Translations under genes and position numbers: made by a program
The notes under the pieces: model-generated
Seen by the model: the letters and a program-made list of their open reading frames with translations, nothing else
Databases searched by the model: none
Told to the model about the DNA's origin: nothing
Shown here: positions 2,575 through 26,238 of the stretch, one piece after another
How positions within the stretch are numbered: the stretch's first letter is position 1
Layout of the letters: each line of letters starts with the position of its first letter
NCBI RefSeq assembly: GCF_044647545.1
Contig: NZ_CP172818.1
Length of the DNA: 64,000 bases
Reading direction: 5' to 3' (one strand)
DNA from: Escherichia coli
GTDB lineage: Bacteria > Pseudomonadota > Gammaproteobacteria > Enterobacterales > Enterobacteriaceae

Positions 2575-2807
2575 AACACCCTCTGAAGGTCTGAGAGACT
2601 GGCATTGTACGTCACCTGAAATCAGGTTAGGGCATTGTTAAAAGCCGCTCTCTGGAAAAGCGTATTGTTAATCGCAACGCATGAATAAACAACGGTTTCA
2701 AGGGAATTTTTATCGTTTCCGGGGGTTGAATACGCTGCCGGATGACGACTTAACGTTTCATCCGGCGTTCCTTGCAAGCGGGAGGAAACAGCGCCCTCCC
2801 CGGCATA

Positions 2808-5066
2808 TTACTCTTCGCTATCACCGCTGCTGGCACGGCGAGGAGAGTCGATCTCAACACGATCGATACGCTGCAAACCGCGCATCAACGTACCGCGGCG
2901 TCCACGTTCGCCAGTGACTTTCTGTAGCTCTTCCGGACGCAGTTTAATTTTGCGTTTCCCAACATGAATGGTCAGCGTGCTTTGCGGCGGCAGAACGTAC
3001 AGTTGCGCCAGACCATCCTCGCCACGCGCGGCTTCTGCCGACGGAATGTTGATAATCTTATTGCCTTTGCCCTTCGACAACTGCGGCAGATCGCTTACCG
3101 GGAACATCAACATACGGCCTGCCTGAGTGATTGCCAGCAGCATATCGGAAGCATCCTCAATCACCACCGGCGGCATAACATGGGCATTTTCCGGTAAGGT
3201 GATCAAAGCCTTACCTGCACGGTTACGCGCCACCAGATCGTTAAAGGTGCAGACGAAACCGTAACCCGCATCGGAAGCCATCAGCAGTTTCTGATCGTCG
3301 CTTTCCATCAGCATATGGTCAACGGTCGCCCCAGGCGGCAACGTTAATTTGCCGGTGAGCGGTTCGCCCTGACCACGCGCCGACGGCAGCGTAATCGGGT
3401 CGATGGCATAGCTACGACCGGTGGAATCAACAAACACTACCGGTTGGTTGCTCTTACCTTTCACCGCCGCTTTGAAGCTATCGCCCGCTTTATAATTCAG
3501 GCCCGGCGCGTCGATATCATGGCCTTTAGCGCTGCGTACCCAGCCCATCTGCGACAGCACAATGGTGACAGGTTCAGACGGCAGCATGTCGTGCTCGCTC
3601 ATCGCTTTCGCTTCTTCGCGTTCCTGCAACGGCGAACGACGTTCGTCACCGTAGGCTTGCGCGTCTGCCTGCAGTTCTTTCTTCAGCAGGTTATTCATTT
3701 TACGCTCGGAAGCCAAAATGCCCTGCAACTGGTCGCGCTCTTTTTCCAGCTCACTCTGCTCACCGCGAATCTTCATCTCTTCCAGTTTGGCAAGATGACG
3801 CAGTTTCAGTTCGAGGATCGCTTCCGCTTGGGTTTCCGTAAGGCCAAACCGCGACATCAGCGCCGGTTTCGGTTCATCTTCATTACGAATGATCTCAATC
3901 ACTTCGTCGATATTGAGAAACGCCACCAGCAAACCTTCGAGGATATGCAGGCGCTTGAGGACTTTCTCCAGACGATAATTCAGTCGGCGGCGCACGGTAT
4001 CGCGGCGGAACACCAGCCATTCGGAGAGGATTTCCAGCAGGTTTTTCACCGCCGGACGACCATCCAGACCGATCATATTGAGGTTAATGCGATAGCTCTT
4101 TTCCAGATCGGTGGTAGCAAAGAGGTGGTTCATCACCTGATCCATATCCACGCGGTTGGAACGCGGCACAATCACCAGACGGGTCGGGTTCTCGTGGTCA
4201 GATTCATCGCGCAGATCGTCAACCATCGGCAGCTTTTTGTTGCGCATTTGCGCAGCAATTTGCTCCAGTACGCGCGCACCTGAAACCTGATGCGGCAATG
4301 CGCTGATAACCACCGCGCCATCTTCTTTCTTCCAAACCGCGCGCATACGCACTGAACCACGTCCGTTCTCGTAGATTTTACGAATCTCGGCGCGCGAAGT
4401 GATAATTTCCGCTTCAGTCGGATAATCCGGCCCCTGCACGATATCCAGCAGCTGATCGAGCGTGGTTTTCGGCTGGTCGATTAATGCGATTGCCGCCTGA
4501 GCCACTTCACGCAGGTTATGCGGTGGAATATCGGTCGCCATGCCGACGGCAATACCGGTGGTGCCGTTAAGCAAAATGTTTGGCAGACGGGCAGGTAGCA
4601 TTTTCGGCTCCTGCAAAGTGCCGTCGAAGTTTGGCACCCAGTCAGCCGTCCCCTGCCCCAGCTCGCTCAATAGCAGCTCGGAATATTTCGACAACCGGGA
4701 TTCGGTGTAACGCATTGCCGCGAACGATTTCGGATCGTCCGGCGCACCCCAGTTCCCCTGACCATCAACCAGCGGATAACGGTAAGAGAACGGCTGCGCC
4801 ATCAGGACCATCGCTTCATAACAGGCAATATCGCCGTGCGGATGGTATTTACCCAGTACGTCACCGACGGTACGGGCCGATTTTTTAAATTTGGCGCTGG
4901 CATTCAGGCCCAGTTCAGACATCGCATACACAATGCGCCGCTGAACGGGTTTCAGACCATCACCAATAAACGGCAACGCACGGTCCATGATCACGTACAT
5001 GGAGTAGTTTAAGTAGGCGTTTTCCGTAAATTCATGTAGCGCAAGGCGCTCTGCCATATCGCTCAT
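2808..5066 (-). CDS. parC: DNA topoisomerase IV subunit A
   Basis: 752-aa ORF; GyrA-family N-terminal domain with QRDR motif [12 protein letters not shown]; codon 80 (4827-4829) encodes Ile. Confidence 0.95.
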
Positions 5067-14212: not shown

Positions 14213-15039
14213 CAGTAGCCTTCTGAAGCGGTATCAGGTTGGAAACGTGTGTCCGCCAGGCGATGCACCTCGGTGGTCAGCGTGCCATCAGCATGTAACT
14301 CGAGAGTACGCCAGCCGGGCGCGATGGTGTCCAGCGTAAAGTTGGAACAGTGCGGCTTAAACTGCACACAGGTCGACGGCGTTGCCAGCAGGCGGCGACC
14401 GTTCCAGTCGAGATCCAGCTCCTGATGAATATGACCGCACAGCAAGTATTTGACGTGCGGAAACTTCGCCAGCACGGTATCCAGTTCGCCCGCGTTACGC
14501 AGGCTGTGTTGATCAAGCCAACTACAACCCGCAGGTAGCGGATGATGATGCAGCAGCAGCAACGTATGGCGTTCTGGCGCATCGGCCAGTTTACGTTCCA
14601 GCCACTCAAGCTGAAACTCGCTCAGCTCACCGTGCGGCACGCCAAACACCTGGCTATCCAGCAACAGGATTTGCCATTGCTCACCAATAAACACGCGCTT
14701 CGCCGGGGAGATACCCGCATCCTGTAACGCGCTGTACATCGCGGGCTGGAAATCGTGGTTGCCCGGCAGCCAGACGCAGGGCGCACGAAAACTTGCGATG
14801 CCTTCAGCGAAATGCTGATAGGCCGCAGAGGATTGATCCTGCGCTAAATCACCTGTCGCGACAATCAGGTCGAATTCGTGCTGGTGTGGCCGAATCGCCT
14901 CCAGCACCGCCTGGTAGCTTTCCCAGGTGTTTACCCCTAACAGGGCTTCGTGCTTTTGTGCAAACAGGTGAGTGTCGGTAATTTGTAAAATCCTGACTCT
15001 GGCCTCACCAGCCAGAGGAAGGGTTAACAGGCTTTCCAA
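14212..15039 (-). CDS. cpdA: 3',5'-cyclic AMP phosphodiesterase
   Basis: 275 aa; calcineurin-like metallophosphoesterase motifs (GDLAQD, GNHD); stop overlaps yqiA start. Confidence 0.92.
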
Positions 15040-15063
15040 ATGGTGTCCTTAGGTTTCACGACG

Positions 15064-15486
15064 CTAATAAACCGGAATCGCCATCGCTCCATGTGCTAAA
15101 CAGTATCGCAACCAGTCCGCTAGAAACTGATTAATTTGATGCTTTTCGTCGCGTTGATGCAACTTTTTATTAGGATAATCATACCGCGCTTTGAAGCGAA
15201 AAATCTGCTGGCTTGAACACACTTCAGCCACCATCGCGTCATGATACAGACGCACCGTCATTGACGGAAGGCTCCAGTAACTGATCGCGGGCGCAGTCTG
15301 TTCTATTGTCACCAGGGTAGTGTATCGGGTCGATTCCACAATCGTCAGCCGATATTGTGCGTTTGCCACCTGATAGCTTACAGTTTCGCCGGGTGCGTCA
15401 TTGCGCGGTAACAAACGGCGCAATTGTGAAAAGTTCATCTCGCACAGGCGCATCATTTCAGGAAAGTCAGGTGTGTAACGCTTCAT
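15064..15486 (-). CDS. yqiB: DUF1249 family protein YqiB
   Basis: 140-aa ORF immediately downstream of nudF on the minus strand. Confidence 0.85.
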
Positions 15487-16116
15487 TTATGCCCACTCAT
15501 TTTTTAACGCTTGATGATGCAGCTGCAGCCATTGCAAAGCGATGACCGACGCTGCGTTGTCGATTTTCCCCTCTTCTACCCACTGGTATGCCTGTTCCCG
15601 GCTTACCACATGAACGCGAATATCTTCGTTTTCATCAGCCAGACCGTGAATACCGCTTGCGGTCGTGGCGTCCACTTCGCCCACCATAATTGACGAACGC
15701 TCACTGGTGCCCCCCGGGCTTGCCAGGAAACTTAACACCGGTTTGGTCCGTTTGACTATCAGCCCCGCCTCTTCAATCGCTTCGCGACGGGCAACATCTT
15801 CCACACTTTCACCCTCTTCAATCATCCCGGCAACCATCTCCAGTAGCCAGGGGGTTTCGCTAGTGTCGTACGCGGCAATTCGAATCTGCTCAATCAGCAC
15901 AACTTCATCACGCACTGGGTCAAAGGGTAGCAAGACTGCGGCGTGACCGCGCTCAAAAATTTCCCGCCGTACCTCATGACTCATTTGCCCGTTGAATAGA
16001 CGATGACGAAATCTATAAAGATCTAATGAAAAAAAGCCGCGATAAAGTGTTTCTCGTGCAATAATTTCTACATCGTTTTTGCCAAATGTAACGGGCAGGT
16101 TGTCTGGCTTAAGCAT
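15487..16116 (-). CDS. nudF: ADP-ribose pyrophosphatase (Nudix hydrolase)
   Basis: 209 aa; Nudix box region [22 protein letters not shown]. Confidence 0.92.
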
Positions 16117-16217
16117 TGTTAATGTCCTGGCACTAATAGTGAATTAAATGTGAATTTCAGCGACGTTTGACTGCCGTTTGAGCAGTCATGTGTTAAATTG
16201 AGGCACATTAACGCCCT

Positions 16218-16240
16218 ATGGCACGTAACGCCAACCTTTT
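16218..16240 (+). promoter_or_regulatory. Putative MarA/SoxS/Rob box in the tolC promoter region
   Basis: atggcacgtaacgccaacctttt resembles the marbox consensus (GCAC...AAA spacing) about 80 bp upstream of the tolC ATG; tolC is a known mar/sox/rob regulon member. Confidence 0.45.
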
Positions 16241-16320
16241 GCGGTAGCGGCTTCTGCTAGAATCCGCAATAATTTTACAGTTTGATCGCGCTAAATACTG
16301 CTTCACCACAAGGAATGCAA

Positions 16321-17802
16321 ATGAAGAAATTGCTCCCCATTCTTATCGGCCTGAGCCTTTCTGGTTTCAGTTCGTTGAGCCAGGCCGAGAACCTGATGCA
16401 AGTTTATCAGCAAGCACGCCTTAGTAACCCGGAATTGCGTAAGTCTGCCGCCGATCGTGATGCTGCCTTTGAAAAAATTAATGAAGCGCGCAGTCCATTA
16501 CTGCCACAGCTAGGTTTAGGTGCAGATTACACCTATAGCAACGGCTACCGCGACGCGAACGGCATCAACTCTAACGCGACCAGTGCGTCCCTGCAGTTAA
16601 CTCAATCCATTTTTGATATGTCGAAATGGCGTGCGTTAACGCTGCAGGAAAAAGCAGCTGGGATTCAGGACGTCACGTATCAGACCGATCAACAAACCTT
16701 GATCCTCAACACCGCGACCGCTTATTTCAACGTGTTGAATGCTATTGACGTTCTTTCCTATACACAGGCGCAAAAAGAAGCGATCTACCGTCAATTGGAT
16801 CAAACCACCCAACGTTTTAACGTGGGCCTGGTAGCGATCACTGACGTGCAGAACGCCCGCGCACAGTACGATACCGTGCTGGCGAACGAAGTGACCGCAC
16901 GTAATAACCTTGATAACGCGGTAGAGCAGCTGCGCCAGATCACCGGTAACTACTATCCGGAACTGGCGGCGCTGAATGTCGAAAACTTTAAAACCGACAA
17001 ACCACAGCCAGTTAACGCGCTGCTGAAAGAAGCCGAAAAACGCAACCTGTCGCTGTTACAGGCACGCTTGAGCCAGGACCTGGCGCGCGAGCAAATTCGC
17101 CAGGCGCAGGATGGTCACTTACCGACTCTGGATTTAACGGCTTCTACCGGGATTTCTGACACCTCTTATAGCGGTTCGAAAACCCGTGGTGCCGCTGGTA
17201 CCCAGTATGACGACAGCAATATGGGCCAGAACAAAGTGGGCCTGAGCTTCTCGCTGCCGATTTATCAGGGCGGTATGGTTAATTCGCAGGTGAAACAGGC
17301 ACAGTACAACTTTGTCGGTGCCAGCGAGCAACTGGAAAGCGCGCACCGTAGCGTCGTGCAAACCGTGCGTTCTTCCTTCAACAACATTAATGCATCTATC
17401 AGTAGCATTAACGCCTACAAACAGGCCGTGGTTTCCGCCCAAAGCTCATTGGACGCGATGGAAGCGGGTTACTCGGTTGGTACGCGTACCATTGTTGATG
17501 TGTTGGATGCGACCACCACGCTGTACAACGCTAAGCAAGAGCTGGCAAATGCGCGTTATAACTACCTGATTAACCAGCTGAATATTAAGTCAGCTCTGGG
17601 TACGTTGAACGAGCAGGATCTGCTGGCACTGAACAATGCGCTGAGCAAACCGGTTTCCACTAATCCGGAAAACGTTGCCCCGCAAACGCCGGAACAGAAT
17701 GCTATTGCTGATGGTTATGCGCCTGATAGCCCGGCACCCGTCGTTCAGCAAACATCCGCACGCACTACCACCAGTAACGGCCATAACCCTTTCCGTAACT
17801 GA
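16321..17802 (+). CDS. tolC: Outer membrane efflux channel TolC
   Basis: 493 aa from ATG 16321 (signal peptide MKKLLPILIGLSLSGFSSLSQA); the 506-aa frame has 13 extra upstream codons. Confidence 0.95.
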   Translation: MKKLLPILIGLSLSGFSSLSQAENLMQVYQQARLSNPELRKSAADRDAAFEKINEARSPLLPQLGLGADYTYSNGYRDANGINSNATSASLQLTQSIFDMSKWRALTLQEKAAGIQDVTYQTDQQTLILNTATAYFNVLNAIDVLSYTQAQKEAIYRQLDQTTQRFNVGLVAITDVQNARAQYDTVLANEVTARNNLDNAVEQLRQITGNYYPELAALNVENFKTDKPQPVNALLKEAEKRNLSLLQARLSQDLAREQIRQAQDGHLPTLDLTASTGISDTSYSGSKTRGAAGTQYDDSNMGQNKVGLSFSLPIYQGGMVNSQVKQAQYNFVGASEQLESAHRSVVQTVRSSFNNINASISSINAYKQAVVSAQSSLDAMEAGYSVGTRTIVDVLDATTTLYNAKQELANARYNYLINQLNIKSALGTLNEQDLLALNNALSKPVSTNPENVAPQTPEQNAIADGYAPDSPAPVVQQTSARTTTSNGHNPFRN

Positions 17803-17949
17803 TGACGACGACGGGGCTTCGGCCCCGTCTGAACGTAAGGCAACGTAAAGATACGGGTTATCTGCCGCATTCCTCCCCCTTCTCGCTTCAATTTCGACCA
17901 GCCATCCTCTATTCTGATGGGTATTTACCACTGGTCCCGGAAGACAAAA

Positions 17950-18621
17950 ATGAAACGGACAAAATCCATACGCCACGCATCGTTCCGCAAAAACTGGAGC
18001 GCACGCCATCTGACACCAGTCGCTCTCGCGGTTGCCACTGTTTTTATGCTGGCGGGCTGTGAAAAGAGTGATGAAACAGTGTCTCTCTATCAAAATGCTG
18101 ACGACTGTTCAGCTGCAAACCCAGGCAAAAGCGCCGAATGTACCACCGCGTACAACAATGCGCTGAAAGAAGCCGAACGTACTGCGCCGAAATACGCCAC
18201 CCGTGAAGACTGTGTTGCTGAATTTGGTGAAGGTCAGTGCCAGCAGGCACCAGCCCAGGCTGGCATGGCACCAGAAAACCAGGCGCAGGCCCAGCAATCC
18301 AGCGGGAGTTTCTGGATGCCGCTGATGGCCGGTTACATGATGGGGCGTCTGATGGGCGGCGGCGCGGGATTTGCACAGCAGCCGCTGTTCTCCTCGAAAA
18401 ACCCGGCCAGCCCGGCTTACGGTAAATATACCGACGCGACCGGTAAAAACTATGGCGCAGCCCAGCCAGGCCGCACCATGACCGTACCGAAGACGGCAAT
18501 GGCACCAAAACCGGCGACCACCACCACCGTTACTCGTGGCGGTTTTGGTGAATCTGTTGCCAAACAAAGCACTATGCAGCGTAGCGCAACCGGCACCTCT
18601 TCTCGTTCAATGGGTGGCTGA
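17950..18621 (+). CDS. ygiB: DUF1190 family protein YgiB
   Basis: 223 aa from Met at 17950 ([12 protein letters not shown]...), lipobox-like LAGC; Gln/Ala/Gly-rich. Confidence 0.85.
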
Positions 18622-18626
18622 TACCG

Positions 18627-19787
18627 ATGGAAAGAGTCAGTATTACCGAGCGCCCGGACTGGCGCGAAAAAGCCCACGAATACGGTTTCAATTTTCACAC
18701 CATGTACGGCGAGCCGTACTGGTGTGAAGATGCTTACTACAAGTTGACCCTCGCTCAGGTTGAAAAGCTGGAAGAAGTCACCGCCGAACTGCACCAGATG
18801 TGCCTGAAAGTGGTGGAAAAAGTGATCGCCAGCGATGAGCTGATGACCAAATTCCGCATACCAAAACACACCTGGAGTTTTGTGCGCCAGTCATGGCTGA
18901 CGCACCAGCCATCGCTTTATTCGCGTCTTGATCTGGCGTGGGATGGCACTGGCGAACCTAAGCTTCTGGAAAATAACGCCGATACGCCAACGTCACTATA
19001 CGAGGCGGCGTTCTTTCAGTGGATCTGGCTGGAAGATCAGCTTAACGCCGGTAACTTGCCGGAGGGCAGCGACCAGTTTAACAGTTTGCAAGAAAAGCTG
19101 ATCGATCGCTTCGTTGAGCTGCGTGAACAGTATGGCTTCCAGTTGCTGCATCTCACCTGCTGTCGCGACACGGTGGAAGATCGCGGAACCATTCAGTATT
19201 TGCAGGACTGCGCGACGGAAGCTGAAATCGCTACCGAGTTCCTCTACATCGACGATATCGGGTTAGGTGAAAAAGGTCAGTTCACGGATTTACAGGATCA
19301 GGTGATTTCCAACCTGTTCAAGCTGTATCCGTGGGAATTTATGTTGCGTGAGATGTTCTCCACCAAGCTGGAGGATGCAGGCGTACGCTGGCTGGAACCG
19401 GCGTGGAAGAGCATTATCTCCAACAAAGCGCTTCTACCGCTACTGTGGGAGATGTTCCCGAATCACCCGAACCTGCTGCCCGCTTATTTTGCGGAAGATG
19501 ATCATCCGCAAATGGAAAAATATGTGGTTAAACCGATCTTCTCCCGTGAAGGCGCAAACGTGTCGATCATTGAGAACGGCAAAACCATTGAAGCAGCGGA
19601 AGGTCCGTATGGCGAAGAAGGGATGATTGTTCAGCAATTCCACCCGTTACCGAAATTCGGCGACAGCTATATGCTGATTGGTAGCTGGCTGGTGAACGAT
19701 CAACCTGCCGGAATTGGCATTCGTGAAGACCGTGCATTGATCACCCAGGATATGTCTCGGTTTTATCCGCATATTTTTGTTGAGTAA
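18627..19787 (+). CDS. ygiC: Glutathionylspermidine synthase-like ATP-grasp protein YgiC
   Basis: 386-aa ORF 6 bp after ygiB. Confidence 0.88.
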
Positions 19788-19802
19788 GCTATCCCCTTTT
19801 TT

Positions 19803-19957
19803 CTAACACCACAATACCCCCCCACCACAAAACAAAAAAAACAAAAAAAAAAAAAAAAAAAAAACAAAAAAAACAACCAAAAAAAAATAAACAAAACCAA
19901 AAAAACAAATCCCAATACCCGAGGCACTCGCCATCCGGTTTAAAAAAAAAAAAATTA
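19803..19957. repeat. Low-complexity A/C-rich tract containing an A22 homopolymer (19843-19864) and an A13 run (19942-19954)
   Basis: Between 19811 and 19910 the top strand is almost exclusively A and C; non-coding, sits between the convergent ygiC and ygiD stops. Confidence 0.9.
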
Positions 19958-20773
19958 TTAACCTATCTGCACCGACAGCATACTTAAACTGCCCATTTCT
20001 ATACCATCGACCGGAATGGTAATTGGCTCCTGCCCATCCCACGCACCTAAGACATACAACAACGGCAGATAGTGCTCTGGCGTTGGGTTCGATAACGCGC
20101 CACCTTCATGGTCGAGATAATTCACCAGAGGATGTTGTTCCACCGGCCCTTGCCACGTCAGATTCGCTTTCACATACTCATTAAACGACGTCGCCCACGG
20201 ATACGGTGAACTATCACCGTGCCACTTCACTGTACGCAGGTTATGCACCACGTTGCCACTGGCGACCAACATTATCCCTTCATCACGCAGCGCCGCGAGT
20301 TTGCGCCCCATTTCGAAATGCCAGGCGGCAGGTTTGCTACTGTCGATACTCAACTGCACCATCGGGATATCGGCGTCAGGATACATCTTAATCAGTACGC
20401 CCCACGAGCCGTGGTCGAAGCCCCAGGCTTCTTTATCCAGCGTCACAGGGACCGGCGCTAACAGCTCAACCAGATGCTGTGCCAGCGCAGGTGAACCCGG
20501 AGCAGGATAATGCGTATCGTACAGCGCCTGCGGGAAGCCACCAAAGTCATGAATCGTGGGCGGCGTCTCCATCGCGGTCACTCCTGTTCCACGGGTAAAC
20601 CAGTGAGCCGAAACCACCACTATTGCTTGCGGGCGTGGCAATGTCATCCCCAACGTCTGCCAGCTGCGGGTATACAAATTATCTTCCAGCACGTTCATCG
20701 GACTACCGTGACCTAAAAACAATGCTGGCATACGTGTTGAAGACATGATGATATCCTTAACTAAAGGTGTCAT
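19958..20773 (-). CDS. ygiD: Extradiol ring-cleavage dioxygenase (LigB/DOPA-dioxygenase family) YgiD
   Basis: 271-aa ORF; start uncertain (alternative Met codons at residues 10 and 15). Confidence 0.85.
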   Translation of the reverse strand: MTPLVKDIIMSSTRMPALFLGHGSPMNVLEDNLYTRSWQTLGMTLPRPQAIVVVSAHWFTRGTGVTAMETPPTIHDFGGFPQALYDTHYPAPGSPALAQHLVELLAPVPVTLDKEAWGFDHGSWGVLIKMYPDADIPMVQLSIDSSKPAAWHFEMGRKLAALRDEGIMLVASGNVVHNLRTVKWHGDSSPYPWATSFNEYVKANLTWQGPVEQHPLVNYLDHEGGALSNPTPEHYLPLLYVLGAWDGQEPITIPVDGIEMGSLSMLSVQIG

Positions 20774-20888
20774 TTTGATATCCTCACAATACGCTTGTTC
20801 GGCGGAGTAAGAACCCGGATAACAATGATGATGATCATCAGTTATTTTGACGATCTGCCTGAAGGTGAAGATTTATAAGGAGTTGTCG

Positions 20889-21662
20889 ATGTCAGTACCT
20901 CTCATTCTGACCATACTGGCGGGGGCAGCCACGTTTATTGGCGCGTTTCTCGGCGTTCTCGGGCAAAAACCCTCGAACCGCTTACTGGCGTTTTCGCTAG
21001 GATTTGCGGCGGGGATCATGTTGCTCATCTCATTAATGGAAATGCTTCCTGCCGCATTAGCCGCCGAAGGAATGTCACCTGTGTTGGGTTATGGAATGTT
21101 TATCTTCGGTCTGCTTGGCTATTTTGGCCTGGACCGCATGTTGCCACATGCGCATCCGCAGGATTTAATGCAAAAATCGGTGCAGCCGTTGCCAAAATCG
21201 ATCAAGCGCACAGCCATTCTGCTCACTCTCGGCATCAGTCTGCATAACTTCCCGGAAGGGATTGCCACCTTTGTCACGGCGAGCAGCAACCTAGAGCTGG
21301 GCTTTGGCATCGCACTGGCCGTTGCGTTACACAATATTCCTGAAGGTCTGGCGGTTGCAGGCCCGGTTTACGCGGCAACGGGGTCTAAACGCACCGCGAT
21401 TCTTTGGGCGGGGATTTCTGGACTGGCAGAAATTCTTGGTGGTGTGCTGGCGTGGTTAATCCTCGGTAGCATGATTTCCCCGGTGGTCATGGCGGCAATC
21501 ATGGCGGCGGTTGCAGGAATTATGGTAGCGCTCTCGGTTGATGAATTAATGCCGCTCGCCAAAGAGATTGACCCTAATAATAACCCCAGCTATGGCGTAC
21601 TATGTGGAATGTCAGTGATGGGATTCAGTTTAGTGCTGCTACAAACGGCGGGAATTGGTTAA
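20889..21662 (+). CDS. zupT: ZIP family zinc/divalent metal transporter ZupT
   Basis: 257 aa from ATG 20889 preceded by SD taaggag; multi-TM with HNxPEG motifs. Confidence 0.92.
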
Positions 21663-21719
21663 AAGCAACATCAGAAGTTGTCCAGCGCATGGACAACTTC
21701 TGCCAGCTTCACTAAAGCC

Positions 21720-21890
21720 TTATTCTACCTTTTCGGCTGTCTCTTCTCTCGTACTGTTTAAGTATTTGTTCCGCGCTTCAAGCAGTGCGTCTCTGTCCTG
21801 GCGAAACGCCCGACAATAACGTTTCAAATGCAGGAAATAACCCACAACAACAAGAGCAATCAATACAATCCAGTACCAGGCGATAAACAT
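21720..21890 (-). CDS. Hypothetical small single-pass membrane protein
   Basis: 56-aa product MFIAWYWIVLIALVVVGYFL... with one TM helix and a charged C-terminal tail; gggtaaaagg lies directly upstream of this Met; a longer 64-aa frame starts at 21914; may correspond to a K-12 small protein but I cannot name it confidently. Confidence 0.45.
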   Translation of the reverse strand: MFIAWYWIVLIALVVVGYFLHLKRYCRAFRQDRDALLEARNKYLNSTREETAEKVE

Positions 21891-22151
21891 CCTTTTACCC
21901 TTAATATTTAACAATACTAAACATTTAGCGCATAAATTTCACATATCCTTTTTCGGATATATTCATATGGTCGCATAATAACGGAACAATTATATGATTT
22001 TGATCATAATGAAAAAGAATGCCTGATATTAATGAAATTTTCTCATAGAAAGAGAAGCGGAATTAACATCTTGCATAGCAGGGAAAAATAAAAACCGAAG
22101 CCTGCTACAACTTCGGTTTCTTGATTAAGGCAGTAAATTAAGCAGCGGTTT

Positions 22152-22805
22152 TCAGCTGGCTTTACGCTCATGTGCCTGACGGTATGCCACCAGGTCTTCA
22201 ATAGTCACGAGCGCCATATTGTGTTTATTGGCAAACTCAATGCACTCTGGTGCACGCGCCATCGTGCCATCGTCATTAGTCAGCTCACACAGCACACCAG
22301 CCGGTTTAAAGCCTGCCAGCGTCATTAGATCAATAGTTGCTTCAGTATGGCCGCCACGCGTCAGTACTCCACCTGCCTGCGCGCGAAGTGGGAAAACGTG
22401 GCCCGGGCGATTCAGATCAGAAGGTTTTGCGTCATCGGCAATCGCTGCGCGAACGGTCGTAATACGGTCAGCGGCAGAAACACCGGTAGTCACACCTTCA
22501 GCCGCTTCAATGGTCACGGTAAAACCGGTGCCATAGGCGCTGGTGTTATTTTCTACCATCATTGGCAGATCGAGTTGTTTACGGCGATCTTCAGTAATGC
22601 ACAGGCAAACAATACCGCTACCGTGGCGAATGGTCAGCGCCATCTGCTCAACGGTCATGGTTTCTGCCGGGAAGATCATATCGCCTTCGTTTTCACGGTC
22701 TTCATCATCAAGCACCATTACACCGCGTCCTTCACGCAGCGCAGCCAGTGCATTTTCAACACGTTCGAAAGGCGTACCAAAAGAGGAAAGTAGCGTCTGA
22801 TTCAT
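22152..22805 (-). CDS. ribB: 3,4-dihydroxy-2-butanone 4-phosphate synthase
   Basis: 217-aa ORF; matches RibB. Confidence 0.95.
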
Positions 22806-23060
22806 GGTAAAAAAACCTCACTAAAATTATGGTTACCAGAATCAGGGCAGTCTTAGGAGTGGCGGCATATAGCCAAAATAACGTGAGCGGGTCCATGCCC
22901 GACAGAATCGTTACTCTCTCCCATCCGGACTCTAACCGTCGGCCCCGGAATTACACCGGATCTGCTGTCCTTTGAGTTCGCACCCAAAGCGCTCGCGGGC
23001 TTTCAACTGAGTTGATTTACCGCCGGTGGGGAATTTCGCCCCGCCCTGAGAATAAGCGGA
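22806..23060 (-). promoter_or_regulatory. ribB leader containing FMN riboswitch (RFN element; sroG region)
   Basis: Minus-strand leader contains the conserved RFN segments ...agggcggggcgaaattccccaccggcggtaaa...agcccgcgagcg...ccgacggttagagtccggatgggagagagt... directly upstream of ribB. Confidence 0.7.
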
Positions 23061-23178
23061 TTCACTATAACGCTAATGATTAGCGGCAGCAACGCATAGC
23101 TTCACATAATTCTGGTTTATGACTTACCCTTATCGCACTACAATGGCACTCAACACCTATCAGTACAGGGAAACTACA

Positions 23179-23463
23179 ATGATTGACCCGAAAAAAATTG
23201 AGCAAATCGCTCGCCAGGTTCACGAATCAATGCCTAAAGGAATCAGGGAGTTCGGGGAAGATGTGGAGAAAAAAATCCGCCAAACCCTACAAGCGCAGCT
23301 GACGCGTCTCGATCTGGTAAGCCGCGAAGAATTCGACGTTCAGACGCAAGTCCTGTTACGGACTCGTGAAAAACTGGCGTTACTGGAGCAGCGCATCAGT
23401 GAACTGGATTTGAAAAAACCAACACAAAAACGGGCCAGACGGCCCGTAATATCAGTGTTCTAA
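23179..23463 (+). CDS. ubiK: Ubiquinone biosynthesis accessory factor UbiK (YqiC, BMFP coiled-coil family)
   Basis: 94-aa product from ATG 23179 ([16 protein letters not shown]...), SD caggga upstream; the 114-aa frame is an upstream extension. Confidence 0.8.
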
Positions 23464-23652
23464 TTCAAGTTCTCTGGTTTGCATCATTTGTTGGCAATAC
23501 CAGGCATAACGTGCGCAAAACCAGGTTCTATGTTCTTCATCCATGTTACCAGTAACGGCCAGAATATCGACCGGGCGACCTTCTGCGTGCATTCTGGCAA
23601 AACTACGCGCCAGGAAATCGAAATTATTTAAAGAATTAAGACTATGATCCAT
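23452..23652 (-). CDS. glgS: Surface composition regulator GlgS
   Basis: 66-aa product [57 protein letters not shown]...; 3' end overlaps the ubiK 3' end by 12 bp. Confidence 0.88.
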
Positions 23653-23920
23653 AAGCACATCCTCCGGTTATCGCATACCTTTTAAGGCCATATGCTTTTT
23701 CTGATTTCAGTATTCCCCAATCAGTGTAGTGCCTTTAAACATAACGTGCGTAAATATATTGTCCCCGATCACACTTTTTAGTGAAAAATAAAAAACCATA
23801 TTAAAAGACTTTCTCTTCCAGAACTTCTCTAACATGTGTTATTATTAACAAAGATAAATGTAAGCAAGGAAACTATCCTAAAGTAAATATTGCGTCACTA
23901 AATGGACATTGGAGTGACAT

Positions 23921-24550
23921 ATGATTTTATTCGCCGACTATAACACCCCTTATCTTTTCGCTATTTCCTTTGTACTGTTGATCGGCCTTTTAGAAATTTT
24001 TGCGCTTATCTGCGGTCACATGCTCTCCGGTGCACTTGATGCACATCTTGACCATTATGATTCCATAACCACAGGTCATATTAGCCAGGCACTTCATTAT
24101 CTCAATATCGGAAGATTGCCAGCTCTCGTCGTTCTTTGCTTACTGGCTGGTTTTTTTGGTCTTATTGGCATCCTGTTGCAGCATACCTGCATCATGGTCT
24201 GGCAATCACCACTCTCGAACCTGTTTGTGGTTCCTGTCAGTTTACTGTTTACGATTATTGCGGTGCATTATACCGGTAAAATAGTTGCGCCCTGGATTCC
24301 ACGCGATCATAGCTCAGCTATTACAGAAGAAGAATATATTGGTAGCATGGCGTTAATTACCGGTCATCAAGCCACTTCAGGTAATCCCTGCGAAGGAAAA
24401 CTCACCGATCAATTTGGCCAAATACATTATTTACTACTGGAGCCTGAAGAAGGAAAAATTTTCACTAAAGGAGACAAAGTGTTAATTATTTGCCGACTTT
24501 CTGCAACTCGATATTTGGCGGAAAACAATCCCTGGCCCCAAATATTGTAA
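23921..24550 (+). CDS. yqiJ: NfeD-like inner membrane protein YqiJ
   Basis: 209-aa multi-TM ORF immediately upstream of the flotillin-like gene. Confidence 0.85.
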
Positions 24551-24576
24551 TTTATTAATCAAAAGGAAATTTAATA

Positions 24577-26238
24577 ATGGATGATATTGTTAATTCTGTG
24601 CCCTCCTGGATGTTTACCGCGATTATTGCCGTATGCATTCTGTTTATTATTGGAATTATTTTCGCCAGGCTCTATCGTCGCGCTTCGGCAGAGCAAGCTT
24701 TTGTTCGTACTGGTTTAGGTGGGCAAAAAGTGGTAATGAGCGGTGGCGCAATCGTGATGCCGATCTTTCATGAAATAATCCCCATCAATATGAATACTCT
24801 GAAGCTGGAAGTCAGCCGCTCAACCATTGATAGCCTGATTACGAAAGATCGTATGCGCGTCGATGTCGTTGTCGCTTTCTTTGTGCGGGTAAAACCGTCA
24901 GTGGAAGGTATTGCCACCGCCGCCCAGACGCTGGGGCAACGCACCCTGTCGCCTGAAGACTTACGTATGTTGGTTGAAGATAAATTTGTCGATGCCCTCC
25001 GTGCAACAGCTGCACAAATGACCATGCATGAGTTACAGGATACCCGCGAGAACTTCGTGCAGGGCGTACAAAATACCGTTGCTGAAGATCTGTCGAAAAA
25101 CGGCCTGGAACTGGAAAGCGTTTCACTTACCAACTTTAACCAGACGTCGAAAGAACATTTCAATCCTAACAACGCCTTTGACGCCGAAGGTTTAACCAAG
25201 CTGACGCAGGAGACGGAGCGCCGTCGTCGCGAACGTAACGAAGTTGAACAGGATGTAGAAGTTGCGGTGCGTGAGAAAAACCGTGATGCACTTTCGCGCA
25301 AGTTGGAGATTGAACAACAAGAAGCGTTTATGACGCTTGAGCAGGAGCAGCAGGTTAAAACCCGTACCGCTGAGCAGAATGCGAAAATTGCGGCTTTTGA
25401 AGCTGAACGTCGTCGTGAAGCAGAGCAGACGCGAATTCTGGCTGAACGACAGATTCAGGAAACGGAAATCGACCGCGAACAGGCCGTCCGTTCCAGAAAA
25501 GTTGAAGCTGAACGTGAAGTTCGCATTAAAGAGATCGAACAGCAGCAGGTCACCGAAATCGCCAACCAGACGAAATCGATCGCTATTGCCGCCAAATCGG
25601 AACAGCAGTCACAAGCGGAAGCGCGTGCCAACCTTGCACTTGCAGAAGCGGTAAGCGCCCAGCAAAACGTAGAAACCACTCGCCAGACCGCAGAAGCCGA
25701 TCGTGCTAAACAAGTTGCCCTAATCGCTGCCGCGCAGGATGCAGAAACCAAAGCGGTTGAACTGACCGTGCGGGCGAAAGCAGAGAAAGAAGCCGCAGAG
25801 ATGCAGGCGGCGGCGATCGTTGAGTTAGCCGAAGCAACACGCAAAAAAGGCCTGGCGGAAGCAGAAGCACAACGTGCGCTGAACGACGCTATCAACGTAC
25901 TTTCTGACGAGCAAACCAGCCTTAAATTCAAACTGGCATTATTGCAGGCGCTGCCTGCGGTAATTGAGAAATCCGTGGAACCAATGAAGTCTATCGACGG
26001 CATCAAAATTATTCAGGTCGATGGGCTGAATCGTGGTGGCGCTACGGGTGATGCAAACACGGGTAATGTGGGGGGCGGAAACCTGGCAGAACAAGCGTTA
26101 TCAGCCGCACTCTCTTACCGCACACAGGCACCGCTGATTGACTCCTTGCTCAATGAAATTGGCGTTTCAGGCGGCTCACTGGCGGCATTGACTTCATCCT
26201 TAAGCTCAACAACTCCCGTCGAAGAAAAAGCAGAGTAA
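24577..26238 (+). CDS. yqiK: Flotillin-like SPFH/band-7 domain protein YqiK
   Basis: 553 aa; N-terminal TM, SPFH domain, long E/A/Q/R-rich coiled coil. Confidence 0.9.
   Translation: MDDIVNSVPSWMFTAIIAVCILFIIGIIFARLYRRASAEQAFVRTGLGGQKVVMSGGAIVMPIFHEIIPINMNTLKLEVSRSTIDSLITKDRMRVDVVVAFFVRVKPSVEGIATAAQTLGQRTLSPEDLRMLVEDKFVDALRATAAQMTMHELQDTRENFVQGVQNTVAEDLSKNGLELESVSLTNFNQTSKEHFNPNNAFDAEGLTKLTQETERRRRERNEVEQDVEVAVREKNRDALSRKLEIEQQEAFMTLEQEQQVKTRTAEQNAKIAAFEAERRREAEQTRILAERQIQETEIDREQAVRSRKVEAEREVRIKEIEQQQVTEIANQTKSIAIAAKSEQQSQAEARANLALAEAVSAQQNVETTRQTAEADRAKQVALIAAAQDAETKAVELTVRAKAEKEAAEMQAAAIVELAEATRKKGLAEAEAQRALNDAINVLSDEQTSLKFKLALLQALPAVIEKSVEPMKSIDGIKIIQVDGLNRGGATGDANTGNVGGGNLAEQALSAALSYRTQAPLIDSLLNEIGVSGGSLAALTSSLSSTTPVEEKAE

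Follow-up and report, generated by a model that had tools for sequence, protein, structure and literature searches.

YqiD is a conserved small protein of Escherichia coli and a candidate membrane accessory encoded beside zupT

Introduction

Among the characterised small membrane proteins, AcrZ binds AcrB, MgtS acts with MgtA and PitA, and MgrB acts with PhoQ. Here we consider a short open reading frame (ORF) in the spacer between zupT and ribB in a 64,000-nt stretch of Escherichia coli DNA (hereafter the window), which encodes the protein YqiD. YqiD falls in the same size class as AcrZ, MgtS and MgrB, has a single predicted membrane helix, and contains no enzymatic domain. By prediction it has the one membrane helix expected of proteins of the AcrZ/MgtS kind (about 50 residues or fewer), and it resembles AcrZ in that an N-terminal helix is followed by a cytoplasmic tail, an arrangement that is predicted for YqiD and taken from general knowledge for AcrZ. 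There is no sequence similarity between YqiD and these proteins, however, and the motif KRYCRAFRQDRDA is unique to the YqiD family; the likeness is therefore one of kind, not of membership. A second point of comparison is SgrS/SgrT, which like yqiD is an Hfq-bound transcript of ~300 nt that also encodes a small protein, whereas in yqiD the coding region makes up most of the transcript and the protein is predicted to be membrane-anchored.

VanOrsdel et al. (2018; PMC6001520) placed YqiD at 3183381-3183551 of the K-12 chromosome, detected the chromosomally SPA-tagged protein by immunoblot in LB cultures, and noted that it had also been an unassigned positive in tetracycline ribosome profiling; according to these authors, in the small set of proteins that includes YqiD, most are present at high levels. 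Bilusic et al. (2014; PMC4152368) found by Northern blot an RNA of ~320 nt "between zupT and ribB" (ig-ribB-zupT) that co-immunoprecipitates with Hfq and whose abundance falls when hfq or RNase III is mutated; they classed it as a bona fide sRNA and noted in it a putative ORF of 56 aa. Shimada et al. (2017; PMC5493296) reported a SELEX peak for the RpoS holoenzyme within the convergent zupT/ribB spacer, at position 3181642 of U00096.2; by our own coordinate conversion the peak lies at about window position 21958, ~68 nt upstream of the yqiD ATG. The gene is also the last locus ID on the gene axis of a figure of 785 NAD-capped RNAs, which is compatible with a transcript that starts with A, and reporter assays in a 2025 preprint made use of upstream regions of yqiD named "WT" and "MT"; the primers of that preprint show that the "MT" region is that of a divergent E. 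coli haplotype described below. We found no experiment on the localisation, topology, partners, phenotype or function of YqiD in the searchable literature, and no published function, as the initial annotation of this stretch had implied in calling attention to small proteins of this kind.

Results

The open reading frame is yqiD

The ORF lies on the minus strand at 21914..21720, where it reads as 64 aa from a TTG codon to a TAA at 21722-21720, and an internal ATG at 21890 gives a 56-aa form, MFIAWYWIVLIALVVVGYFLHLKRYCRAFRQDRDALLEARNKYLNSTREETAEKVE. The two forms agree with the 56-64 aa minus-strand ORF that the initial annotation had described. With 42 ORFs of 30 aa or more overlapping the 4-kb stretch around it, the existence of an ORF is not in itself evidence of a gene, and it is conservation that sets this one beyond chance.

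When positions 21500-22300 of the window were compared by megablast with 5,426 complete E. coli genomes, 5,425 matched, and the RefSeq/PGAP label under the match is "yqiD: protein YqiD" (WP_000469266.1), between zupT and ribB. All 56 residues of the translation are identical to K-12 YqiD (b4756) as printed in PMC6001520, and an exact-sequence look-up of the 56-aa protein returned the UniProt entry YQID_ECOLI ("Protein YqiD"). The window ORF and K-12 yqiD thus have the same protein sequence, position between zupT and ribB, strand and start codon and are the same gene; at the DNA level the window differs from K-12 by a few substitutions, all of them synonymous or intergenic. We regard it as virtually certain that the ORF is yqiD, a translated gene. 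The suggestion that the ORF is unannotated does not hold: YqiD has not been overlooked, since it is carried in RefSeq/PGAP and UniProt and its expression has been published, with translation confirmed by SPA-tag immunoblot and tetracycline ribosome profiling (PMC6001520). YqiD is an already known, annotated and experimentally confirmed gene, and the observation made from the letters was itself correct. Two further details of that reading also proved accurate, namely a purine-rich Shine-Dalgarno sequence directly upstream of the second Met, which makes that Met the likely start, and a spacer of about 490 bp that holds the ribB terminator (489 bp, from the zupT stop at 21662 to the ribB stop at 22152). 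Coordinates of the features of the region are collected in Table 1.

Table 1 Features of the ygiC-ribB region, in window positions.
Feature	Position	Strand	Basis or remark
yqiD paralogue remnant, last ~50 nt	19744-19788	-	overlaps ygiC 3' end
Palindrome ATGATGATGATCAT, ygiD-zupT spacer	20825..20838	.	51-64 nt upstream of zupT ATG
zupT, ZIP-family metal importer, convergent neighbour	20889..21662	+	RefSeq annotation; 27/27 species loci
Stem-loop between convergent yqiD and zupT, 13 bp	21672..21702	-	terminator scan; U-tract poor, interrupted (AUGUUGCUUUU)
yqiD CDS, 56 codons + TAA	21720..21890	-	K-12 identity, RefSeq, dN/dS
Shine-Dalgarno AAGGGTAAAAGG	21891..21902	-	sequence; nearly invariant, 18 species
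A/U-rich 5'-UTR block …AAATGTTTAGTATTGTTAAATATT	21903..21928	-	TGTTAA invariant, flanks at least 90% conserved, 18 species
Candidate 5'-proximal RNA hairpin, AUAUAUCC-GAAAAA-GGAUAUGU	21941..21962	-	minimum-energy and centroid folds
Candidate extended -10, TGCnAnTAT	21967..21975	-	T, G, A, T, A columns invariant, 18 species
Palindrome ATGATCAAAATCAT, contains GATC	21994..22007	.	104-117 nt upstream of yqiD ATG
ribB intrinsic terminator, separates ribB from yqiD	22090..22121	-	terminator scan

YqiD has a predicted membrane helix followed by a conserved basic segment

The first 20 residues of YqiD (MFIAWYWIVLIALVVVGYFL) are strongly hydrophobic, lack charge at the N-terminus and are predicted to form a membrane helix; the Kyte-Doolittle mean over residues 1-19 is 2.33, one helix is predicted, and the net charge after the helix is +4. 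Residues 21-42 form a conserved basic juxtamembrane helix, HLKRYCRAFRQDRDALLEARNK, with seven basic and three acidic residues, in keeping with the hydrophobic helix and charged tail that had been noticed at first sight, and residues 43-56 make up a variable tail that is net acidic. AlphaFold2, run with a 37-sequence alignment, gave a single helix over residues 2-55 with a mean pLDDT of 73 (84-90 over the first 20 residues). By the positive-inside rule, the distribution of charge suggests an N-out/C-in topology.

The conserved basic motif of the family is KRYCRAFRQDRDALLEAR, which across distant members takes the form [KR]R-x-C-[KR]-A-[FYC]-R-[QH]-[DE]-R-[DE]-A; in those members M1, I3, W5, R24, A28, R30, R33 and A35 are invariant or nearly so. 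A Cys occurs at position 26 or 29 in 124 of 126 non-identical motif-bearing sequences, a set that is dominated by close relatives (118 at 26 only, 5 at 29 only, 1 at both and 2 at neither). On the predicted helix these positions lie about three residues from each other.

The coding sequence is under strong purifying selection

Taking one genome per species, we recovered 27 loci in Enterobacteriaceae, each with an intact ORF of 56-60 aa. Over codons 1-42, dN/dS is 0.03-0.09 (Nei-Gojobori, with dS saturated), and the variable sites in this core fall 20/16/37 on the first, second and third codon positions. From codon 43 onward dN nears dS (dN/dS about 0.3-0.9). The substitution pattern indicates that codons 1-42 are under strong purifying selection, and frame conservation, which had been put forward as the means of refuting the gene, speaks in its favour. 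The A-run that precedes the ATG varies by one base between species (AAAAGGATG, AAAAAGGATG, AAATAATG), and since in several species these one-base differences shift the upstream TTG out of frame, the 56-aa form that starts at the ATG is the real product.

YqiD belongs to a small family confined to Enterobacteriaceae

A word-indexed search returned 108 relatives and a profile search 149. Among 1.84 billion cluster representatives searched exhaustively by profile there were only 24, which makes the family a small one. Its members come from Escherichia, Shigella, Citrobacter, Salmonella, Kosakonia, Kluyvera, Phytobacter and Metakosakonia, with Intestinirhabdus and an "Enterobacter sp." found in addition by a genome scan; one match labelled Vagococcus is probably a mislabelled record. 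From its sequence distribution the family is confined to Enterobacteriaceae. Many homologues bear the name DUF4051 in NCBI and UniRef, and this label derives from those names: a Pfam-A search with 14 family members gave no DUF4051 match and only sub-threshold matches to DUF2621 and DUF4381. Searches with YqiD of Pfam, NCBIfam, PADLOC and PDB sequences likewise found nothing above threshold, the sub-threshold matches being composition-driven.

Copies on plasmids or phages were considered and rejected, the only such matches being misfiled chromosomal records. The gene is single copy in the window and in the region of E. coli 042, where a search for a second copy found only a C-terminal remnant of ~50 nt adjoining ygiC. 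Elsewhere in Enterobacteriaceae we observed a paralogous class that is convergent to ygiC (P0113, P0115 and P0117; loci L032, 3951-4112, and L037, 1498-1722), of which E. coli keeps no more than the ~50-nt remnant at the 3' end of ygiC. Some versions in Salmonella enterica and S. bongori (P0089, P0096, P0108) have a disrupted N-terminus; one Salmonella form, MLNFKGKKDVYCLVW…, is read from the upstream TTG after a frame change, and another is annotated only from an internal MKRYC…. These may reflect decay or, in S. bongori, an alternative start. Two short metagenome contigs carry apparent fusions, one of the UbiK N-terminus to the YqiD C-terminus and one of the ZupT N-terminus to a YqiD-like C-terminus (P0103, P0123), which are most likely assembly chimeras formed at short common words, given the orientations of the genes.

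Within E. coli there are two yqiD haplotypes, compared here over window 21720-22160, 2725-3480 of locus L003 and 15669-21395 of locus L038, with a dS of about 1.9, which is saturated; the divergence between them is as deep as that between genera. Haplotype 1 is the K-12 type. Haplotype 2, the 042 type (WP_001296421.1), differs in the C-terminal 19 aa and occurs in roughly 1,000 of the 5,426 E. coli genomes; the two genomes of this type that were inspected (300444 and 042) have a fimbrial operon beyond yqiD. The adjacent zupT is nearly identical in both haplotypes, which, next to so diverged a yqiD, suggests an old recombination boundary. Only three of the genes tested by Santiago et al. (2017) in enteroaggregative E. 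coli 042 were up-regulated in an aar mutant, namely aggR, aap and "orf3334, DUF4051 family". In the 50 kb of E. coli 042 that we examined, the yqiD allele (L038, 15669-15839) is the sole gene of DUF4051 type and is a candidate for orf3334.

Conserved elements precede yqiD and a stem-loop follows it

The A/U-rich block upstream of the Shine-Dalgarno sequence, which ends in TGTTAAAT in the 18-species alignment, is kept even upstream of the distant paralogues P0113 and P0117. It may serve as an Hfq or sRNA contact, or as a translation-initiation element. Farther upstream, the candidate 5' hairpin has moderate comparative support: 78.5% of cells are paired across 18 species, where slid controls reach 26-60%, and some of the changes are two-sided. 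RNAalifold gave a weak consensus for the upstream region (-1.7 kcal/mol). Long-range pairing of the upstream segment GGCAUUCUUUU with the Shine-Dalgarno sequence was considered and rejected, as that segment is not conserved.

From the candidate extended -10 one would expect transcription to begin near 21960 and to give an RNA of 297 nt, and from an alternative TATAAT at 21994-21989, specific to E. coli, one of about 319 nt; the ~320 nt seen by Northern blot is compatible with both. Because the upstream region is conserved whatever precedes it, yqiD appears to have its own promoter and not to depend on read-through from ribB. The stem-loop between yqiD and zupT is probably the yqiD terminator, and in the divergent E. 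coli haplotype it is kept by compensatory changes (CAGATGTTGCC…GGCAACATCTG). Rfam gave no match for yqiD or for the zupT leader, and only the expected FMN riboswitch upstream of ribB. A weak match to the Salmonella sRNA family STnc240 on the minus strand at 22083-22153, at the 3' end and terminator of ribB, scored 29 bits against a gathering threshold of 55 and is probably not significant.

yqiD and zupT are convergent in every species locus

In all 27 species loci yqiD and zupT are convergent, about 57 bp apart, with the hairpin common to both, and the same convergence is found in two more distant metagenomic contexts. The ribB side of yqiD is repeatedly interrupted in these loci and the zupT side never is: beyond yqiD lies either ribB directly or an operon of four fimbrial genes, the latter arrangement being that of E. 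coli 042, with the four genes between yqiD and ribB, and of roughly 1,000 E. coli genomes.

Over positions 15000-24600 the gene order in the window is tolC-ygiB-ygiC-ygiD-zupT-yqiD-ribB-ubiK-glgS-yqiJ. This stretch is without the assT-dsbL-dsbI island of FDAARGOS_497 (a 100% match over 801 bp) and lacks the fimbrial operon that K-12 has between ubiK and glgS; such differences make the neighbourhood a mosaic of insertions across E. coli. The ygiC-ygiD spacer (19793-19953) contains ~120 nt of A/C-rich low-complexity sequence on the plus strand, …CCACAAAACAAAAAAAACA(A)n…, together with a run of 13 A, neither of which is found in a typical E. coli, strain VCSW7. Coverage of positions 19560-20100 stays below 80% in every complete E. 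coli genome, a comparison in which the BLAST low-complexity filter may mask matches, and the stretch could be a strain-specific sequence or an assembly artefact.

A palindrome occurs upstream of both yqiD and zupT

The exact 14-bp palindrome ATGAT-N4-ATCAT, with a GATC in it, has only two matches in the window, one upstream of yqiD and one in the zupT leader, against a chance expectation of about 0.06 (64,000/4^10; our own estimate). With one mismatch allowed there are 7 matches where 2.0 are expected, a number reached in none of 100 shuffles. The yqiD-side copy, TATGATC(A/G)AAATCAT, is invariant in the 18 aligned species and present in 26 of the 27 loci; the zupT-side copy, which lies within the conserved block GAAGAACyCrGATAACcATGATGAwGATCATCAGTTATTTTGA, is likewise found in 26, and both are kept in 25. 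In L031, the most distant syntenic context, both are degenerate.

We compared the palindrome, using consensus sequences, with the sites of CRP, FNR, Fur, Zur, NikR, ArgR, IHF, ArcA and PhoP, and rejected each because half-site and spacing never both fit. Closest in geometry are the CRP and FNR operators (TGTGA-N6-TCACA and TTGAT-N4-ATCAA), whose TGA-N6-TCA arrangement the palindrome matches, but the flanking base, G for CRP and T for FNR, is A in the palindrome (ATGA…TCAT) in all 18 species. If transcription starts at about 21960, the yqiD-side copy would be centred near -40.5, compared with -41.5 for class II CRP/FNR sites, whereas use of the alternative TATAAT would place it in the promoter spacer. 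The start site of zupT in Reg-Seq data, 3182433 (PMC7567609 supplement), corresponds to window position 20772, which puts the zupT copy at +53 to +66, a location that does not fit an activator. In that study zupT, which has been reported to be constitutive, had only an RNA polymerase site; the mutagenised region ran from -115 to +45, and because it ends before the palindrome the conclusion does not bear on it. The palindrome could be an RNA-level or promoter-symmetry feature rather than a common operator. We regard the pair as a modest new lead.

Discussion

Our overall explanation, to which we assign a probability of roughly 55%, is that yqiD is a stand-alone monocistronic gene for a membrane accessory or modulator, with ZupT as its most plausible partner. 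In this reading an Hfq-associated mRNA of ~300-320 nt arises at a promoter belonging to yqiD itself, within the zupT-ribB spacer, and probably ends at the hairpin common to the convergent zupT; the mRNA is translated from the ATG at 21890 into 56 residues. The protein may insert in the inner membrane in an N-out/C-in orientation, with residues 1-20 spanning it, so that the basic helix KRYCRAFRQDRDALLEAR, with its nearly always kept Cys, would sit at the cytoplasmic face and be followed by the fast-evolving acidic tail. The membrane and juxtamembrane helix might then pack on a larger inner-membrane protein and modulate its activity or stability. Taken on its own, and by analogy with AcrZ, MgtS and MgrB, an accessory or modulator role for YqiD seems to us to have an even chance of being right.

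ZupT is named as the candidate partner or pathway, tentatively, because of the convergence in 27 of 27 loci and in the distant contexts, the interruptions confined to the ribB side, and the pair of palindromes. Adjacency in itself is weak evidence, since the ygiD-zupT-ribB neighbourhood is syntenic among close Enterobacteriaceae, and against the link stand the arrangement of the two genes, which is convergent and not an operon, and the paralogues P0113 and P0117, which adjoin ygiC and not zupT. That YqiD acts specifically on ZupT or on metal homeostasis therefore seems doubtful from sequence context. A narrower proposal, in which YqiD is a dedicated modulator of ZupT or metal homeostasis, the palindrome a common operator or RNA element bound by some regulator, and Cys 26/29 a site of metal or redox sensing, is more doubtful still.

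The alternative that fares best is that YqiD is a real membrane protein whose partner is unrelated to ZupT (a sensor kinase or a respiratory or biogenesis complex, for example, or lipid, with which the basic helix would be in contact), the adjacency and the palindrome being coincidence or promoter architecture. Most characterised small membrane proteins, MgtS, AcrZ and MgrB among them, are encoded away from their partners, which favours this alternative, as do the paralogues beside ygiC and the reported constitutive expression of zupT. The two-copy palindrome that flanks zupT is, however, hard to put down to chance, and insertions have repeatedly split yqiD from ribB but never from zupT. We consider an unrelated partner unlikely on balance, at appreciably lower odds than our overall explanation.

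The locus might instead specify a trans-acting, Hfq-dependent sRNA in which the ORF is incidental, or a dual-function RNA like SgrS/SgrT. The ~320-nt RNA is enriched with Hfq and destabilised without it (PMC4152368), and the 5'-UTR block is as conserved as the coding core, distant paralogues included. However, an mRNA that is a target of sRNAs would equally be expected to bind Hfq and to lose stability in an hfq mutant, the U-tail of the terminator (AUGUUGCUUUU) is poor for a canonical Hfq-dependent sRNA, and no Rfam family matches. Coding constraint is unambiguous and the protein has been detected, which excludes an incidental ORF, and we judge an sRNA role for the locus improbable.

Far less probable is a toxin role, in which YqiD would belong to a type I toxin-antitoxin-like module and depolarise the membrane when made. 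A small hydrophobic single-helix protein, a long conserved 5' UTR and an Hfq-associated transcript whose levels are affected by RNase III are features that such a module would share. Against it, yqiD is a core gene of the chromosome, present once and at a fixed locus, neither multicopy nor mobile, with no genuine plasmid or phage copies; tagged YqiD is detected in LB-grown cultures; a polar, predicted cytoplasmic tail with a conserved motif accounts for over half of YqiD; neither PADLOC nor any other search gave a match; and in our sequence scan there was no antisense element, the only promoter-like match being on the strand of yqiD itself. Finally, a chance ORF in the ribB 3' region and spacer, with no protein product, is refuted for practical purposes, even in a region with many chance ORFs of 30-60 aa, by the frame kept in 27 of 27 loci, the low dN/dS, the third-position excess, and the immunoblot and ribosome profiling.

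As a discovery of a gene the finding carries little weight, because yqiD is annotated and its expression already published, although the case does illustrate how a reading of raw sequence can bring genuine small-protein genes to light. YqiD is one of many validated E. coli small proteins without an assigned function, and its restriction to Enterobacteriaceae, its constrained, Cys-containing motif, its invariant pairing with zupT and the palindrome provide handles for functional study. Were the link to ZupT true, the view of zupT as simply constitutive would have to be revised, and YqiD would, as far as we know, be the first small protein to regulate a ZIP transporter in bacteria.
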